From sequence record MT446415.1: a stretch of DNA of 64,000 bases. One strand, written 5' to 3'. This document shows, piece by piece, positions 13,090 through 33,037 of the stretch. The translations under genes were made by a program, and so were the position numbers. This DNA is from Escherichia virus TH44. The notes below the pieces were generated by a model. It did not search any database. It saw only the letters and a program-made list of their open reading frames with translations, and was not told where the DNA came from. The stretch's first letter is position 1; every line of letters begins with the position of its first letter.

Positions 13090-13647
13090 ATGAACGAAAT
13101 TAAATTAACCAAGAATAACTATGTAAATAATAAAGAGCTTTTGAAAGCTATTTCGGAGTGGAAACAGAAGCTGAATGCGAACACTGACCCGAACAAAATT
13201 ATTCGCCAGAACGATGTTATTGGTCTGGCGATTATGCTTATAGCCGAAGGTCTTAGCAAACGTTTTAACTTCTCCGGATATACCCAATCCTGGAAGCAAG
13301 AAATGATAGCGGACGGAATTGAGGCCGCAATAAAAGGTCTTCACAACTTCGACGAAACAAAATACGATAATCCACATGCTTACATAACAATGGCTTGCTT
13401 CAATGCTTTCGTTCAGCGTATCAAAAAAGAACGTAAAGAAATGGCAAAGAAATATAGCTACTTCGTCCATAACGTATATGATTCACGTGACGACGATATG
13501 GTGGCTCTGGCTGATGAAACATTTATCCAGGACATCTATGACAAAATGACACAGTACGAATCCTCCTTAGTTAAAGTGCCAGGGTCTGATAAGAGCACCA
13601 AAGATAAAGAGGGTGATTTGGATTTTTTATATGGAACATCAATTTGA
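13090..13647 (+). CDS. 55: late-transcription sigma factor gp55
   Basis: 185 aa; 'YVNNKELL...[39 protein letters not shown]' matches T4 gp55 as recalled. Confidence 0.9.
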
Positions 13648-21623: not shown

Positions 21624-24338
21624 ATGCAAGAATTTTATTTAACTATCGAACAAATTGGTGACAATCTGCTCGAACGATACATTGACAAGAACGGTCATGA
21701 ACGTGTTCGTGAAATCCCTTATGCTCCATGCTTGTTTATGCACGCCCGGGAAGGTCAGGCTGCAAAGTATACAGACATCTATAATAAAGGTTGTGTGAAA
21801 AAAGAATTCGATTCCATGCGTGATGCGTCCCAGTGGATGAAGCGAATGAATGACATGGGTCTCGAAGCTATGGGTATGGATGACTTTAAACTCGCATACT
21901 TGTCCGACCGTTACCCGCACGAAATCAAATATGATTCAAGTAAAATCCGTGTTGCTAACTTCGATATCGAGGTGACATCTCCCGATGGGTTCCCTGAACC
22001 GTCTGAAGCACGTCACCCTATTGATGCCCTGACGCACTATGATTCGGTAGACGATAAATTCTATGTCTTTGACCTTTTGGGCTCACCATACGCCACTGTG
22101 GAGCAATGGTCTATTGATATTGCTGCTAAGCTACAGGAAGACGGCGGTGATGAAGTCCCTGAAGAAATCCTGGAAAAAATTGTTTATATGGCTTTCGATT
22201 CAGAAGAAGAAATGCTCCAGCAGTATTTGGTATTCTGGAACGAGAAAACTCCGGTTATGCTAACTGGTTGGAACATCGAGAAGTTTGATATTCCATATAT
22301 CTACAACCGCCTTAAAAATATATTTGGTGAAGCTACAGCAAAACGTCTGAGCCCACATCGTCGTACAAAAGTTAAGGTCATTAACAACGGCTTTGGTGAA
22401 GAACAAGAAATCATTCAGATTCTGGGTATCTCTGTTCTGGATTATCTGGACCTGTATAAAAAGTTCAGCTTCACAAACCAACCGTCTTATTCGTTGGATT
22501 ATGTTGCGGAATCTGAACTTGGTGTTGGTAAACTCCCGTATGATGGCCCGATTTCTAAACTGCGTGAATCAAATCACCAGCGGTATATTTCTTATAACAT
22601 CATCGACGTTTATCGTGTTGTGCAGATTGACCGTAAGCGGCAGTTTATTAACCTGAGCCAGTCAATGGGTTATTATGCAAAAATGCAGATTCAGTCTGTA
22701 TTCAGCCCAATCAAAACTTGGGATGCGATTATCTTTAACAGCCTGAAGACTCAAAACAAAGTCATTCCGGAAACCAAATCGCATGTTCGTCAATCGTTCC
22801 CTGGTGCATTTGTTAAGGAACCGATTCCGAACGCATACAAATATGTAATGAGCTGTGACTTAACATCTCTGTATCCGAGCATTATCCGACAGATTAACAT
22901 CAGTCCAGAAACGATTGCCGGTTCATTTGCACCAGCCCAGATGTATGAATACATCGCAGGAACTGCTGACCGTCCATCTGATACATTTAGTTGTGCTCCA
23001 AATGGTATGATGTATTTTAAAGATGTTGCGGGTATTATTCCGACAGAAGTCACCAAGGTGTTTAATCAGCGTAAAGAACACAAAGGCTATATGCTTGCGG
23101 CTCAACGTAATGGTGAACTGATTAAGGAAGCTCTGCGTAATCCAGGAACGGGTACAACCGAGCCTGAAGTTGATTATCGTTATGACTTTGATGACAATAT
23201 GAAAACGGCCCTGCATGGTCTGAATCAAACAGTCCTGAATGGTATGCTGTACAAAGCGCAGATGGAAGAAGTTGCAGGCATGACCGCACAGATTAACCGT
23301 AAACTGCTTATCAACAGTTGTTATGGCGCTCTGGGCAATATCTGGTTCCGTTACTTTGACCTGCGAAATGCGACCGCGATTACATCTTTCGGACAACTTG
23401 CATTGCAGTGGATTGAGCGTAAAGTTAACGAATACTTCGATAGTGTTTGTGGGACAAGCGGCGAAACTTATGTGTTCTATGGCGATACTGACTCCATTTA
23501 TATCCAGTGCGATAACCTTATTAAAAAGGTTGGTGGTGAATCTAAATTCCGTGATACAAACCACCTGGTTGACTTCATGGACAAGTTTGCGAAAGACCGC
23601 CTGGAACCGGCAATCGATAAAGCTTTCCGTGAGCTGGCTGAATACATGAACAACAAACAGCATCTTATGTTTATGGACCGTGAAGCGATTGCATGTCCTC
23701 CGCTGGGTTCTAAAGGTGTGGGTGGATTCTGGACGGCGAAGAAACGTTATGCGCTGAACGTGTACGATATGGAAGGCACACGTTATGCTGTTCCGAAATT
23801 GAAAATCATGGGTCTGGAAACTCAAAAGTCGAGTACTCCAAAGGCATGTCAGAAAGCTCTGAAAGAATGTATCCGCCGTATGCTGCAAGAAGGTGAAGAA
23901 TCCCTGCAGACATACTTCAAGGAATTCAATAAGGAATTTAATGAGCTTAACTATATGACCATCGCGGGTGTATCATCGGTTAACAACATCCAGAAATATA
24001 ATGAAGGTGGTTTCCCTGGATTTAAGTGCCCGGCTCATATCAAAGGTGTGCTTGCATATATGCGTGCAACTAAAGGTCTGAAGACTGTTCCGCAAATCAT
24101 GGAAGGGGAAAAGGTGTATGTACTTCCTCTTAAAGTCGGCAACCCGTTTGGTGAAACCGTGATTGCATGGCCATCTGGGATTGAACTCCCGATTGAAATC
24201 CGTGACCAGGTTCTGCAGTGGATGGATTACAGTGCTTTGTTCCAGAAGACTTTTGTTAAGCCGTTATCAGGTTTCTCTGAAGCTGCAAAGGTTGATTACG
24301 AAAAGAAAGCAACTCTTTTTGACATGTTCGACTTTTAA
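21624..24338 (+). CDS. 43: DNA polymerase gp43 (family B)
   Basis: 904 aa; exonuclease 'FDIE', polymerase 'YGDTDS' motifs; uninterrupted. Confidence 0.96.
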   Translation: MQEFYLTIEQIGDNLLERYIDKNGHERVREIPYAPCLFMHAREGQAAKYTDIYNKGCVKKEFDSMRDASQWMKRMNDMGLEAMGMDDFKLAYLSDRYPHEIKYDSSKIRVANFDIEVTSPDGFPEPSEARHPIDALTHYDSVDDKFYVFDLLGSPYATVEQWSIDIAAKLQEDGGDEVPEEILEKIVYMAFDSEEEMLQQYLVFWNEKTPVMLTGWNIEKFDIPYIYNRLKNIFGEATAKRLSPHRRTKVKVINNGFGEEQEIIQILGISVLDYLDLYKKFSFTNQPSYSLDYVAESELGVGKLPYDGPISKLRESNHQRYISYNIIDVYRVVQIDRKRQFINLSQSMGYYAKMQIQSVFSPIKTWDAIIFNSLKTQNKVIPETKSHVRQSFPGAFVKEPIPNAYKYVMSCDLTSLYPSIIRQINISPETIAGSFAPAQMYEYIAGTADRPSDTFSCAPNGMMYFKDVAGIIPTEVTKVFNQRKEHKGYMLAAQRNGELIKEALRNPGTGTTEPEVDYRYDFDDNMKTALHGLNQTVLNGMLYKAQMEEVAGMTAQINRKLLINSCYGALGNIWFRYFDLRNATAITSFGQLALQWIERKVNEYFDSVCGTSGETYVFYGDTDSIYIQCDNLIKKVGGESKFRDTNHLVDFMDKFAKDRLEPAIDKAFRELAEYMNNKQHLMFMDREAIACPPLGSKGVGGFWTAKKRYALNVYDMEGTRYAVPKLKIMGLETQKSSTPKACQKALKECIRRMLQEGEESLQTYFKEFNKEFNELNYMTIAGVSSVNNIQKYNEGGFPGFKCPAHIKGVLAYMRATKGLKTVPQIMEGEKVYVLPLKVGNPFGETVIAWPSGIELPIEIRDQVLQWMDYSALFQKTFVKPLSGFSEAAKVDYEKKATLFDMFDF

Positions 24339-29301: not shown

Positions 29302-29310
29302 GTGAACAAA

Positions 29311-29332
29311 AGGGGCTTACAGCCCCTTTTTC
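29311..29332 (+). terminator. rho-independent terminator
   Basis: aggggc-ttaca-gcccct + TTTTT. Confidence 0.65.
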
Positions 29333-29370
29333 TTATGTTATAATGACTCTATCAACTACTGGAGAATAAA

Positions 29371-29688
29371 ATGAAAACCATTGATTGCAAGGCAGAATAC
29401 AAAGTTTATTATCATGGGTCAAGCTCTAATGCTGGAATCCAAAATATGCTTTGTCCTCCTGATGCAACTGGTGTTCTGTCAGAAGTTGGACGTAAGAAAA
29501 ATTTAGGGCGTGTGTTTTTTACTGAAGATATTGGTTTGGCGCGTATCTATGCAGGAAGAGCAGCTCGCTCATATGGAGGAGAACCCCGTCTTTATCGTGT
29601 GATTGCACCTGTTGACGTGGTTTGTTTAAATGACACTAAAGGCGCAACAGTTTATCACGCCGCATGGGCGTTTTGTGAGGAAATCTAA
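29371..29688 (+). CDS. small protein with ART/PARP-like 'YHGS' motif
   Basis: 105 aa; 'YYHGSSSNAGIQNM' and 'GRVFFTEDIGLARIYA' resemble the H-G-S and Y-region motifs of H-Y-E ADP-ribosyltransferase folds (recalled). Confidence 0.5.
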   Translation: MKTIDCKAEYKVYYHGSSSNAGIQNMLCPPDATGVLSEVGRKKNLGRVFFTEDIGLARIYAGRAARSYGGEPRLYRVIAPVDVVCLNDTKGATVYHAAWAFCEEI

Positions 29689-29892
29689 ATGTATAAATTA
29701 GAGAACGTAGTGTTTATTGGTTGGTTTGAAAATGGTAATATGTTTACCAAAGAAACCGCGCTGGATGTCAGTGACAAAAATATGATTGAATGGGTTACAG
29801 TGCAGTATGCAGAAGTGAATAATGCGCTGGTTAAAGCCTTTGTTAATGACAATAAAGTTTTTGAATATGATGCCCGCATTGAGGAAATCTAA
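29689..29892 (+). CDS. hypothetical protein, paralog of next ORF
   Basis: 67 aa; shares 'NALV.AFV.D' segment and 'GAGGAAATCTAAATG' junction with 29893..30234. Confidence 0.45.
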   Translation: MYKLENVVFIGWFENGNMFTKETALDVSDKNMIEWVTVQYAEVNNALVKAFVNDNKVFEYDARIEEI

Positions 29893-30234
29893 ATGACTTT
29901 TAATCCAGAAGACCGCGTAAAAGTAACAATCAAAGTGAGTGCCGTTGGCGTTCCATCTTTTGAGCGCTCAAGTATGTTCCATCCCGCAGGTATTCACTGG
30001 TATGTCCAGAAGACTGCTGATAACTATAATGCACTGGTTGAAGCTTTTGTTGATGACAAGCTAATTCATAAAGTAGACATGCGTAAGGGTACTGCATTGC
30101 GTAATCTGATTTTGACCGTTGAAGCTCAACTGGTAAATGAAGAAATCTGCCTTACTGATATTGAAGCGGCTCTTCATATTGCGCGTGCTGAATATTACAA
30201 CTTGACTGGTTTTTCAGTTGAAGGTGAAAAATAA
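29893..30234 (+). CDS. hypothetical protein, paralog of previous ORF
   Basis: 113 aa. Confidence 0.5.
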   Translation: MTFNPEDRVKVTIKVSAVGVPSFERSSMFHPAGIHWYVQKTADNYNALVEAFVDDKLIHKVDMRKGTALRNLILTVEAQLVNEEICLTDIEAALHIARAEYYNLTGFSVEGEK

Positions 30235-30264: not shown

Positions 30265-30292
30265 ATCCCTATCAACTACTGAGGAGATTGAA

Positions 30293-30586
30293 ATGAAAAA
30301 GTTATTAATCGCAGCAATTCTTACCGTAGCATCATGTGGTACAGCTCCAGTTACTGCTGGACTTGATAAAGACCTTTGTGAGTGGTCTATGACTGCGGAC
30401 CAGACTGATGTTGAACACCAGATTTATGCTGACATCATGAACATTACTAAACGTGACCGCCCAGATATGGTTAAAGAAGTATCTGACCAACTGGCTTCTG
30501 GTGACGTTATGCAGTATAACTATGTTCTGTATTGCGATGCTTCATTTGACAACAGCAAGATTGTTCAATGGGTTACAGGTGAATAA
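30293..30586 (+). CDS. putative lipoprotein
   Basis: 97 aa; signal peptide with lipobox 'VASCG'. Confidence 0.5.
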   Translation: MKKLLIAAILTVASCGTAPVTAGLDKDLCEWSMTADQTDVEHQIYADIMNITKRDRPDMVKEVSDQLASGDVMQYNYVLYCDASFDNSKIVQWVTGE

Positions 30587-30587
30587 A

Positions 30588-31028
30588 ATGATTAACAGAA
30601 ATTTAGTTATCAAAAAACTTCGTTGTAAAAATCAAAATGCACAAGCATACAGGATGTTTTGGAGCGACGAGCCCATTCAATACCTGGGTTATTTTCTTGT
30701 TGATAGTGATAATAGAATTACGTTTGCTCATAAACTTCTTAACAAAGAATTAAACCATTGGCAAGAACTTATTGCGGTCAAGTCTAAATTATTTTCGCGC
30801 AATACAATACACCAATTGGTTTATTTTTTCGCTGATGGTATTCCTGACAAGGTTGAGTTTGACGGGTTTGAATTTAAAGACATCAACCCTGATAATGAAT
30901 TGAATGACAGTATTGTTAATATGGGTATCCCGGGTAAGTACATCAAAAACAGTCTTTTGAAACTTCTGGAAACCCCTGTATATTCAGTTGACGACCAGAT
31001 TTTTAATGCCTTCATGAAGCGAGATTAA
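30588..31028 (+). CDS. hypothetical protein
   Basis: 146 aa; C-terminus 'DDQIFNAFMKRD' lies in a 43-bp direct repeat. Confidence 0.5.
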   Translation: MINRNLVIKKLRCKNQNAQAYRMFWSDEPIQYLGYFLVDSDNRITFAHKLLNKELNHWQELIAVKSKLFSRNTIHQLVYFFADGIPDKVEFDGFEFKDINPDNELNDSIVNMGIPGKYIKNSLLKLLETPVYSVDDQIFNAFMKRD

Positions 31029-31032
31029 TATG
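30990..31032 (+). repeat. 43-bp direct repeat, copy 1
   Basis: gacgaccagatttttaatgccttcatgaagcgagattaatatg. Confidence 0.8.
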
Positions 31033-31184
31033 CATATTCAAAGTGATTTATCTTATCTGAATTTTGAATTAGTTAAAAATAATGATGGTAATGCTCATTA
31101 TGAATTCCGTGAACCCAGGTTTAATCAGGCGCGATTGGTTATATTATCGTTAAAGATGATGTTATCATAAAGGCTCGCTCATTT

Positions 31185-31400
31185 ATGGTAATGAATGGAC
31201 CGTATGAAGATACTCGTGGCTACCCATTTGATAAAAAGAATGTGCGCGATTGTGCAGTCTGGATAACTGGAAACCCTGAAATTGGGGTCATGTTATCTAC
31301 TGAAGCAAATGACATTCTGGAAGCGGGCTGGGTCAAAGCTCAAGAACCGCCTACTGATATTGATGACCAGATTTTTAATGCTTTCATGAAGCGAGGTTAA
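31185..31400 (+). CDS. hypothetical protein
   Basis: 71 aa; C-terminus 'DDQIFNAFMKRG' in repeat copy 2. Confidence 0.4.
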   Translation: MVMNGPYEDTRGYPFDKKNVRDCAVWITGNPEIGVMLSTEANDILEAGWVKAQEPPTDIDDQIFNAFMKRG

Positions 31401-31404
31401 TATG
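31362..31404 (+). repeat. 43-bp direct repeat, copy 2
   Basis: gatgaccagatttttaatgctttcatgaagcgaggttaatatg; few mismatches to copy 1. Confidence 0.8.
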
Positions 31405-31623
31405 TTTGTTTTGACACAATTCTCTAAAGCAATATATAGTTACACTTGTCAGTGGGAAGTCTTTATTGATACTCCATCTCCCAAGTATGGAGTTTTTGGA
31501 CGAGTAACTACTCAAGCCTACGTTGCACGACCGACTAAACGTCAGATTCGTAAACTTAAAAAGGCGCATCGTCAACTGATTAAAAGAAGGGAACAATATG
31601 AGTGCAATGTGTACGGGCTCTAA
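31402..31623 (+). CDS. hypothetical basic protein
   Basis: 73 aa ORF. Confidence 0.4.
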   Translation: MFVLTQFSKAIYSYTCQWEVFIDTPSPKYGVFGRVTTQAYVARPTKRQIRKLKKAHRQLIKRREQYECNVYGL

Positions 31624-31789: not shown

Positions 31790-32008
31790 ATAGCGGAAAG
31801 GGGGTGTTATGAAAACATTCAAAGATTTTATCAACGAAGATATGGTTGCTGGTGACGCAGGTGGAAACCCAACTAATATCGCAACAGGTACCACTTCCGG
31901 GGCAGTTGTCAATAAAGGCCCTGAACAAATCCCATCAAAAAAGCGTAAGAACAAAGACGATAAACCTACAGTATAATGGTCCTCCGGGACCATTGAAATG
32001 AGGAAACT

Positions 32009-33037
32009 ATGTCATATATTGATAGAGAATTTGCAGTCAGAGCTTTATCGTATCAACCACGTTATAGAGAAGTCACCGGGAGCACATTTAAAGCAAACTG
32101 TCGTTGCAAGGTTTGTGGGGACTCCCAGAAAGATTCACACAAGGCTCGATTCTGGGCGTATACTAATCCGGCTGATGGCGCGGTTTACGTGAAATGTTTT
32201 AACTGTGACTACTCCACGCATATAAGCAAATACATAAAAGAGTTTGAGCCGGATTTACACCGGGAATATATGGTCGAGAAGTATAAGGAGAATGCCTTTG
32301 GGCGGCAACGTACTGAAGTTACAGAAGCTCCGAAAGAACCAGAAAAAACTCCGGTTATTGAGCAGCTTGCTTTTTGTGAAAGACTCGATACTTTACCAGA
32401 AGCACATCCGATAGTTAAGTATGTAAAAAGTCGATGTATTCCGAGCAATGTTTGGAACCGACTATGGTTTACAAACCAATGGCCTGCATTAGTTAACTCC
32501 GTTAATCCTGGGACGTATAAGAATGAAACGAATGAACCACGCTTGGTTATTCCTATCTTCAACGGCAAAAAAGAAATCGAATCTTTCCAAGGACGAGCTC
32601 TTCGCAAAGATGCACCACAAAAATATATCACAATCAAAGCTCACCCAGAAGCTTCCAAAGTCTATGGCGTAGACAAGATTGATGAGCGTAAACGCGTATG
32701 GGTAATGGAAGGTCCGATTGATAGTTTGTTTATCCCTAACAGCATTGCGATAACCGGTGGAACATTAGCATTAGAAGCTGTTCCTTATCCAGAAACCAGA
32801 GTATGGGTGATGGACAACGAGCCAAGACATCCGGATACGATTAAACGTATGAAGAAGCTCGTTGAAGCTGGCGAAGCTGTTATGTTCTGGGACAATGCAC
32901 CATGGCATACGAAAGACATAAATGAGATGGTTAAATCAGAAGGGGCAACCCCTGAACAAATCGAATCATATATGGCCGATAACGTTGCTCAAGGATTGAT
33001 GGCGAGAATGCGACTTTCGAAGTACGCAAAAGTTTAG
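32009..33037 (+). CDS. 61: DNA primase gp61
   Basis: 342 aa; N-terminal zinc ribbon 'CRCKVCGDS...CFNC'. Confidence 0.92.
   Translation: MSYIDREFAVRALSYQPRYREVTGSTFKANCRCKVCGDSQKDSHKARFWAYTNPADGAVYVKCFNCDYSTHISKYIKEFEPDLHREYMVEKYKENAFGRQRTEVTEAPKEPEKTPVIEQLAFCERLDTLPEAHPIVKYVKSRCIPSNVWNRLWFTNQWPALVNSVNPGTYKNETNEPRLVIPIFNGKKEIESFQGRALRKDAPQKYITIKAHPEASKVYGVDKIDERKRVWVMEGPIDSLFIPNSIAITGGTLALEAVPYPETRVWVMDNEPRHPDTIKRMKKLVEAGEAVMFWDNAPWHTKDINEMVKSEGATPEQIESYMADNVAQGLMARMRLSKYAKV

Follow-up and report, generated by a model that had tools for sequence, protein, structure and literature searches.

The 64-kb stretch of DNA analysed here (the window) belongs to a T4-type phage nearest to the Gapriverviruses TH54, UPEC01, SP18 and VR20 (~95-96% identity, megablast), and its plus-strand genes follow the early order of T4, 41 > dmd > ... 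> sp > (slot) > ... > 61.1 > 61. The direct repeat with which we are concerned lies where gene 61.2 (adfA) has its slot, with spackle (sp) on one side and 61.1/primase on the other (Table 1). Two genes fill this slot in the window, one for a 146-aa protein and one of a 122-aa family, and they are followed by a gene of the DUF7279 Pfam family (PF23945), into which T4 gp61.4 falls as well (E 2e-20). Since gp61.4 is TifA (PMC9391042), the locus as a whole can be equated with the 'anti-TA island' of Srikant et al., the T-even 'anti-toxin-antitoxin island' that holds dmd, tifA and adfA (PMC9391042).

Table 1. Features of the adfA slot and its borders in the window, with the basis of each assignment.
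Feature	Position	Strand	Description	Basis
sp	30293..30586	+	Spackle periplasmic protein, left border of the slot	PF25676 T4_Spackle, E 1.4e-43; annotated sp in SP18, VR7 and VR26
146-aa gene	30588..31028	+	phrog_8539; tail ...VDDQIFNAFMKRD	ORF; phrog_8539, E 1.3e-90
Repeat copy 1	30988..31032	+	Last 13 codons of the 146-aa gene, TAA, T and next-gene ATG	Repeat search
122-aa-family gene	31030..31400	+	phrog_4122; 'RB32ORF033c' ('gp61.2' label in VR7); frameshifted here	Relatives' alignment; repaired phrog_4122, E 1.1e-50
46-aa ORF	31030..31170	+	N-terminal fragment of the frameshifted gene	ORF; relatives' alignment
GCGCG	31129..31133	+	Site of 2-bp insertion, frame shifted; GCG in relatives	Alignment with six relatives
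71-aa ORF	31185..31400	+	C-terminal fragment, frame open from 31125, ending ...IDDQIFNAFMKRG	ORF; relatives' alignment
Repeat copy 2	31360..31404	+	Last 13 codons of the 122-aa-family gene, TAA, T and DUF7279-gene ATG	Repeat search
DUF7279 gene	31402..31623	+	Homologue of T4 gp61.4/TifA (anti-ToxN), right border of the repeat unit	PF23945, E 9e-20
61.1 homologue	31809..31976	+		gp61.1 in SP18 and VR7 annotation; 77.8% nt identity to T4 61.1
Gene 61	32009..33037	+	DNA primase, locus anchor	Annotation in relatives; aligns to T4 gene 61

A repeat search of the window returned two direct copies of 45 nt each, identical at 42 of 45 positions (93%) and spaced by 372 nt from start to start. Both copies read ...[V/I]DDQIFNAFMKR[D/G], then TAA, one T and the ATG of the next gene, and the window holds just two instances of their 31-nt core, GACCAGATTTTTAATGCNTTCATGAAGCGAG. 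A sequence-only reading that preceded this analysis had described near-identical copies of 43 bp lying 372 bp apart, each encoding the C-terminus ...DDQIFNAFMKR[D/G] together with the stop and the following start; read again, the segments are indeed near-identical, at the slightly greater length given above, and its call of the 146-aa gene is likewise correct.

The same reading took a 49-aa ORF between the copies and a 71-aa ORF to be separate proteins, and in this respect it has to be revised. The first of these ORFs is 46 aa long, and the two are halves of a single gene of the 122-aa family, split in the window by a 2-bp frameshift and intact in six relatives. The gene measures 371 nt in the window as against 369 nt in MN01 and EAWsc9, where it is intact, and the stretch between the copies is one gene in every relative examined, with intact products of 122 aa (MN01, EAWsc9), 119 aa (SP18, VR7, TH54) or 117 aa (PSD2001, UPEC01). 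Where the window reads CAGGCGCGATT, all six aligned relatives (MN01, SP18, VR7, TH54, PSD2001, EAWsc9) read CAGGCGATT; the difference within this string is a GC/CG dinucleotide insertion that is unique to the window among the seven sequences. Once repaired, the 122-aa protein matches phrog_4122 over its full length, as the 146-aa protein does phrog_8539, both of them families of uncharacterised T4-like phage proteins. The sole other record of the GCGCG allele is a Logan contig (SRR11772956_3243) that matches the window at 100% identity across 5,226 bp, and therefore represents the same source and provides no independent check of the insertion. Judged from the alignment, the second gene would be a real pseudogene inactivated by the 2-bp insertion, unless the insertion is an assembly error. 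A programmed ribosomal frameshift was considered for the split gene and rejected, as the six relatives are uninterrupted and CAGGCGCGATT contains no slippery heptamer. In annotation, a single frameshifted gene should take the place of the 46-aa and 71-aa ORFs.

The tail encoded by the repeat, [I/V]DDQIFNAFM[K/N][R/K][G/D] with TAA-T-ATG behind it, ends the members of three families: AdfA (208-216 aa), the 146-aa family and a family of 116-125 aa to which the split gene belongs. T4 gp61.2 is AdfA (PMC11257639, PMC9391042), and as a control it matched the Pfam profile PF23813, 'Anti-DarT factor A', with 450 bits (E 1e-135); it ends in ...IDDQIFNAFMNRG (...VSIDDQIFNAFMNRG), after which comes the TAA-T-ATG of 61.1. 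Within the 122-aa protein, residues 109-122 (the final 14) are all that matches this profile, aligning with profile positions 198-211 of 211, and the score of 20.5 bits is below the gathering score of 27 bits; for the 146-aa protein Pfam gave no PF23813 match at E<=1. By the Pfam threshold the 146- and 122-aa genes thus stand outside Pfam's AdfA, with which they share the tail, the slot and possibly the fold. The AdfA C-terminal motif IDDQIFNAFMxxG with TAA-T-ATG is present here too, and the pair is situated as adfA is, directly behind sp and ahead of 61.1 and 61.

The tails of phrog_8539, phrog_4122 and phrog_3781 cross-match in PHROGs, and all 59 of the 59 proteins retrieved for the three families terminate in [DE]DQIFNAF[ML]x[RK][GD]; for the 146-aa protein, 35 homologues were retrieved. 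A blastn search of the phage GenBank collection placed the 48-nt tail at 757 sites; the 559 phage records concerned cover, among others, Tequatro-, Gapriver- and Dhakavirus. The bodies taken without their tails are present in 85 (146 family) and 332 (122 family) phage records. When 1.84 billion protein representatives were searched with a tail profile, only the three families were returned, along with two spurious low-complexity matches, and a metagenome scan produced T4-like loci and ~10 chance internal matches to DQIFNAFM in unrelated ORFs, which were ignored. Degenerate-pattern scans of IMG/VR yielded no more than 3 and 16 loci, not enough for a statistical treatment, and the phage GenBank collection was used instead. 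The literature that we searched contained no mention of the tail peptide or of a shared AdfA C-terminus. AdfA is reported to act by binding DarT, with residue 164 critical and a His at 164 in active alleles, and nothing in the same study implicates the tail in AdfA action (PMC11257639). Position 164 is not alignable to the 146- or 122-aa proteins.

In nature the slot holds a single tail gene or a pair of them, and all combinations occur. T4 has sp > AdfA > 61.1, T2 has sp > 118-aa > 61.1 and RB68 has sp > AdfA > 118-aa > 61.1; the window, SP18 and VR7 have sp > 146 > 122 > DUF7279, MN01 has sp > 146 > 122 > 63-aa without the DUF7279 gene, and VR26 has sp > 146-aa > DUF7279. Dhakaviruses carry the 146-aa gene as single slot gene, and in Dhakavirus-like contigs the tail DNA is likewise followed by the DUF7279 start, ATGTTTGT. 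The left neighbour of the 122-family gene accordingly varies, being AdfA in RB68, the 146-aa gene in the window and sp in T2. VR26 is the kind of single-copy relative that the sequence-only reading had proposed to look for: it has one tail copy and is without exactly the 372-bp unit, such that the 146-aa gene is directly followed by the DUF7279 gene. Its single tail is copy-1-like at every diagnostic site, and so either the crossover of a deletion fell in the last 7 bp or the second gene was never present. Slot genes have also decayed independently elsewhere, through a 1-nt indel in a T-run (L052-L054, three samples) and through an amber codon in the adfA of fPS-65; recurrent decay of this sort would be expected if anti-defence genes are under selection that fluctuates.

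Whether the bodies in front of the tail are related is a less straightforward matter. The two proteins had been called otherwise unrelated, and this holds in BLASTP, where the alignment of the 146- and 122-aa proteins is limited to the tail even with the tail included, but it is questionable at the level of profiles and folds. With the tails removed, hhalign aligned the 122 family with AdfA residues ~37-81 at P = 0.0013 (score 23.4, reached by 0 of 40 column shuffles), the 146 family with the 122 family at P ~0.03 (2 of 40 shuffles reach the score) and the 146 family with AdfA at P = 0.02-0.09; the N-terminal half of AdfA aligned with its C-terminal half at P = 7e-4, and a motif G[YF]xxVKDxxI stands in register in the alignments of the 122 family with AdfA, of the 146 with the 122 family and of the AdfA halves. 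In AF2 models the 146- and 122-aa proteins show an identical order of elements, four strands and then a helix, at nearly the same positions, the 122-aa model being a poor one (pLDDT 54). In the model of the 146-aa protein a beta-sheet core (pLDDT 80-90) leads into a low-confidence linker (residues 104-131) and a C-terminal tail helix (134-143) that is itself of low pLDDT. Foldseek led from either model to A0A449C4E3 of phage fPS-65 (E 1e-4 and 7e-4, scores that are inflated by inclusion of the identical tail), a protein that comprises AdfA residues 52-208 and is annotated short on account of the amber codon, at position 18 of fPS-65 adfA. The 122-aa model also led to the 146 family (E 2e-3, tail included), and overall the cross-matches span E 1e-4 to 9e-3, confounded by 12 identical tail residues, with TM-scores of 0.41-0.49. 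The body of a divergent 144-aa homologue (L052) gave no tblastn matches in the phage collection. Shared ancestry of the three bodies is suggested by these comparisons, and is unproven.

AdfA is among the known systems closest to the window genes. They resemble it in the slot after sp and before 61.1/61, in the last 13-14 residues, in the stop/start junction, in being early small proteins of the dmd-tifA-adfA island and, for the body of the 122 family, in the weak profile similarity to AdfA ~37-81. They differ from it in length (146 and 122 aa vs 208-216 aa) and in belonging to separate PHROGs families, and an anti-DarT role for them is putative.

We consider it probable, at roughly 0.6, that two neighbouring early genes of the adfA slot end in the copies and that the repeat mainly reflects purifying selection on their shared C-terminal peptide. 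Evidence of such selection comes from 66 tail copies drawn from all three families, which comprise 35 distinct DNA sequences. Across the nine core codons, DDQIFNAFM, seven of the eight degenerate third positions vary; of the 18 positions that are first or second in their codon, one does (Fisher p = 9e-5). The single exception, M>L, belongs to a lineage in which the gene itself is frameshifted, and one further non-synonymous change in the core, N>K, comes about by a third-position substitution. At the sequence level, this pattern of variation indicates purifying selection on the peptide.

Selection on the peptide does not appear to be the only constraint. The last two codons of the tail (xGA GGT) form the Shine-Dalgarno sequence (GAGG) of the downstream gene, 5 nt before its ATG. 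The two window copies are identical at 8 of 10 degenerate codons vs 4.8 expected (P = 0.038), where the ten include one, CGA, that is Shine-Dalgarno-constrained. Copy 2 is 91.5% identical to the 3' end of T4 adfA, compared with 67-78% for 41, sp, 61.1 and 61, the tail standing out as the DNA best conserved between the two phages; at third positions copy 2 and T4 share 10 of 13 bases vs ~0.45 in flanking genes (a hand count, binomial P ~0.02). Because constraint on the protein alone would leave synonymous sites less alike than they are, some DNA-level force would seem to act on the tail as well, be it gene conversion, a recent exchange, a promoter or the Shine-Dalgarno sequence. Folding revealed no RNA structure at the repeats (z = +0.82 and +0.89).

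We hypothesize that purifying selection on the C-terminal peptide keeps the DNA repeat in place, with the last six bases kept by the translational-coupling signal. The predicted short helix on its flexible linker may dock variable bodies to a common partner, or may otherwise be needed for activity, and the modelled layout of linker and C-terminal helix fits a docking motif. The three families would then probably be very diverged relatives, AdfA being an internally duplicated form, and the tandem pair of the window would most simply be a diverged gene duplication in which the conserved tail is the sole sequence-level remnant. As a by-product, the tails would offer ~45 bp of homology for unequal crossing-over, which could give rise to the genomes with one and with two genes; the 372-bp unit would be lost as a deletion or released as a circle.

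The sequence-only reading had instead seen in the repeat the footprint of short-homology recombination by which a gene cassette was inserted or swapped. Part of this is supported: a gene-sized unit is precisely present or absent in relatives, left neighbours change, and T4 provides a precedent for short-homology events (PMC9391042). The remainder fits poorly with the presence of the tail in single-copy genomes (T4 AdfA, T2 118-aa, Dhakavirus 146-aa), with selection at the amino-acid level and with the tail being the C-terminus of AdfA. Stated in full, the alternative takes the repeat to be above all a linker or scar of recombination, in which unrelated cassettes are inserted, swapped and deleted within a ~45-bp box that is kept or homogenised for that role, and in this form we find it unlikely, although several observations speak for it. 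Besides the 372-bp unit precisely missing from VR26 and the different genes behind which the 122-family gene is found in different genera, the tail is the sole DNA common to the left flanks AdfA and the 146-aa gene, it is the most conserved DNA patch between genera, and the excess of identical synonymous codons given above points in the same direction. The Arg codon of the tail, moreover, tracks genus and not family, being AGA in both Tequatrovirus families and CGA in both Gaprivervirus families, and the choice of K or N at tail position 11 does likewise. Against this, variation is confined to synonymous sites, unlike what would be expected of a pure DNA linker; a tail that is found in single-copy genomes was not generated by insertion; three families among 1.84e9 proteins are few for a general site of cassette capture; and the bodies may be related, for which the evidence is weak. 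The two copies within the window genome, furthermore, differ at as many positions (4) as do copies of one family from different genera (4), and there is thus no clear concerted evolution.

Two known phenomena bear on the linker alternative. In the dmd-tifA island, T4 has been shown experimentally to delete and amplify between short homologies of 6-10 bp (Srikant et al. 2022, PMC9391042). The island is the same, and the mechanism is one that would be expected between the tails; those homologies, however, were fortuitous and the events experimentally selected, whereas the homology here is 45 bp long and conserved in 559 genomes. The second, a precedent for the shuffling of modules, is the PeSLs (PMC2839356; Comeau et al. 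2014, PMC4122927), which are likewise short repeats bordering non-essential genes in hyperplastic regions, and between neighbouring copies of which recombination deletes or excises the gene in between as mini-circles (PMC2839356). PeSLs are intergenic and consist of a sigma70 promoter and a stem-loop terminator, whereas the box here is coding and amino-acid-constrained, and no promoter/terminator pair of the PeSL type lies within either repeat copy. Recombination between tails is, in our view, plausible but secondary to selection on the peptide.

It is tempting to go further and to regard the tail as a portable docking peptide and the adfA slot as a plug-and-play site, where fast-evolving or swapped bodies directed against different toxins or defences would all be tied by the 10-residue helix to one common partner, the coding DNA, held constant by the needs of the peptide, doubling as a crossover site between genera; we hold this extended proposal to be doubtful. 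Terminal peptides on dissimilar proteins are familiar from T4, in the gp45-clamp-binding C-tails of gp43, gp55 and gp33 and in the N-terminal capsid-targeting sequence of internal proteins. A candidate partner would be the gp45 sliding clamp at the replication fork, the site of DarT's ssDNA substrate. The gp43 (DNA polymerase) of the window phage ends in ...TLFDMFDF, and the parallel with clamp-binding tails lies in a short terminal peptide carried by different bodies and in the similarity of the tail core IFNAF to LFDMF; on the other hand, the resemblance spans 3-5 residues and no such role is reported for AdfA.

A further explanation, which we rate as improbable, is that the box is kept as a nucleic-acid signal and the peptide is a side effect. 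The signal would consist of the coupling junction (GAGG and TAA-T-ATG) and of a MotA middle promoter, aaTGCTTty-N12-TAATAT, driving 61.1 and primase. The placement of GAGG ahead of the downstream ATG and the over-conserved synonymous sites agree with this, and T4 reads TAATGCTTTT-N12-TAATAT at this position, to be compared with the middle-promoter consensus (a/t)3TGCTTtA-N11-13-TAtaAT (PMC1524935). Copy 2, which contains the Shine-Dalgarno GAGG at 31393-31396 and a Mot-box-like match at 31379-31403, is one of 17 matches to the Mot-box pattern in the window vs 5.7 expected. However, 21 of the 35 distinct tails, copy 1 among them, use GCC or GCA for Ala, which destroys the GCTT core; a transcript from such a promoter would start after the downstream ATG; and no promoter is annotated there in the records of T4 or fPS-65. 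First and second codon positions that lie outside any such signal are nonetheless invariant, and folding shows no RNA structure (z = +0.8).

AdfA-type genes and the short-homology plasticity of T4-type hyperplastic regions are already known, and the repeat does not constitute an element of a novel type. With selection on the shared peptide as the preferred reading, two 'hypothetical' families, found in 85 and 332 T-even-type phages, become tail-sharing relatives of AdfA and candidate inhibitors of other toxin-antitoxin or ADP-ribosylating defences. The same reading predicts that the invariant C-terminal motif of 9-10 residues within AdfA itself is functional, and the slot would be a natural example of selection on a peptide maintaining a patch of homology that is able to drive the gain and loss of accessory genes.

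That the repeat is a chance similarity, or a segment duplicated by an assembly artefact, is refuted: although extra partial copies with N bases in the records of phiD1 and phage 04086 suggest assembler trouble at this locus, the 31-nt core was absent from 100 of 100 dinucleotide-preserving shuffles (0.00 expected) and the two-copy layout recurs in dozens of independently sequenced isolates. A third 'copy' inside sp (30411-30455, VEHQIYADIMNITKRD), 64% identical, is probably due to chance, its 9-mer seed being expected ~0.5 times in the region; at the matching site, T4 Sp reads QIEADIM.

The 3' ends of both the 105-aa gene and dmd are formed by identical copies of TGAGGAAATCTAAATG in the repeat search of the window, and the 105-aa gene product and Dmd both have C-termini reading ...EEI; a third copy of this junction, at 81%, lies upstream of sp. 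In the TGAGGAAATCTAAATG junction, as in the AdfA-type tail box, a Shine-Dalgarno sequence occurs together with a stop and a start codon, and it is a second repeated gene junction within the same island as the tail repeat. The product of the neighbouring 113-aa gene matches the Dmd-like domain PF17587 at E 0.0017, below the cutoff, and this gene may be a diverged tandem paralogue of dmd. The DUF7279 gene (31402-31623) and T4 gp61.4/TifA (anti-ToxN) belong to one Pfam family but occupy different positions, the former downstream of the adfA slot in the window and the latter between dmd and sp in T4; MN01 and EAWsc9 are without the DUF7279 gene.

Coordinates of junctions, genes and regulatory-like elements in the window
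Feature	Position	Location or description	Source
Repeated gene junction (repeat family D2)	29676-29691, 29880-29895, 30280-30295		repeat search
113-aa gene	29893-30234	directly 3' of dmd; weak Dmd-like domain	
PeSL-like composite	29308-29344	between gene 41 and 105-aa gene	promoter/terminator scan
Near-consensus sigma70 promoter	31411-31440	TTGACA-18-TATAGT, 11/12	promoter scan
gp43 and gp55 C-terminal ends	24300-24338 and 13600-13647		

The repeat search also returned an in-frame 64% nucleotide match to the tail DNA inside sp (30411-30455), encoding VEHQIYADIMNITKRD where the tail has VDDQIFNAFMKRD; this is probably a chance match. The C-terminal ends of gp43 and gp55 are known sliding-clamp-binding tails; gp43 in the window ends ...KKATLFDMFDF, and there is a resemblance between this LFDMF core and the IFNAF of the repeat-encoded tail.

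Three or four tail copies occur in phiD1 (L013 3504-5043) and phage 04086 (L015 2419-3276), where the extra copies belong to partial duplicated gene segments with N bases. Either the tail region is genuinely amplified in tandem in these phages, or the repeat has led to assembly errors.

Genes of this region are broken in some relatives. A 1-nt indel in a T-run splits the 122-family gene into 63 and 68 aa in three Logan contigs (L052 2850-3207, as well as L053 and L054; SRR21291447/49/52) of a more divergent T4-like lineage, in what is an independent event; there the tail of the split gene has drifted to IDDQIFNAFLKRGE, and that of the 144-aa gene upstream reads IDDQIFKAFMNRG. The adfA of Yersinia phage fPS-65 (L056 2536-3160, minus strand) is interrupted at codon 18 by an amber stop (GGTGCCTAGTGT), and its record annotates AdfA residues 52-208 alone, as a 157-aa 'Phage protein'.

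Across the whole window, the Mot-box pattern TGCTTY-N11-13-TANNNT has 17 matches against 5.7 expected, 13 of them on the + strand, an excess consistent with MotA-type middle promoters in the TH44 phage. The PeSL-like composite consists of a terminator-like stem-loop (AAAAGGGGCTTACAGCCCCTTTT) overlapping a sigma70-like promoter (CTTACA-17-TATAAT, extended TG). The near-consensus sigma70 promoter lies just past repeat copy 2, where the coding sequence of the DUF7279/tifA-like gene begins, and falls within its opening codons.
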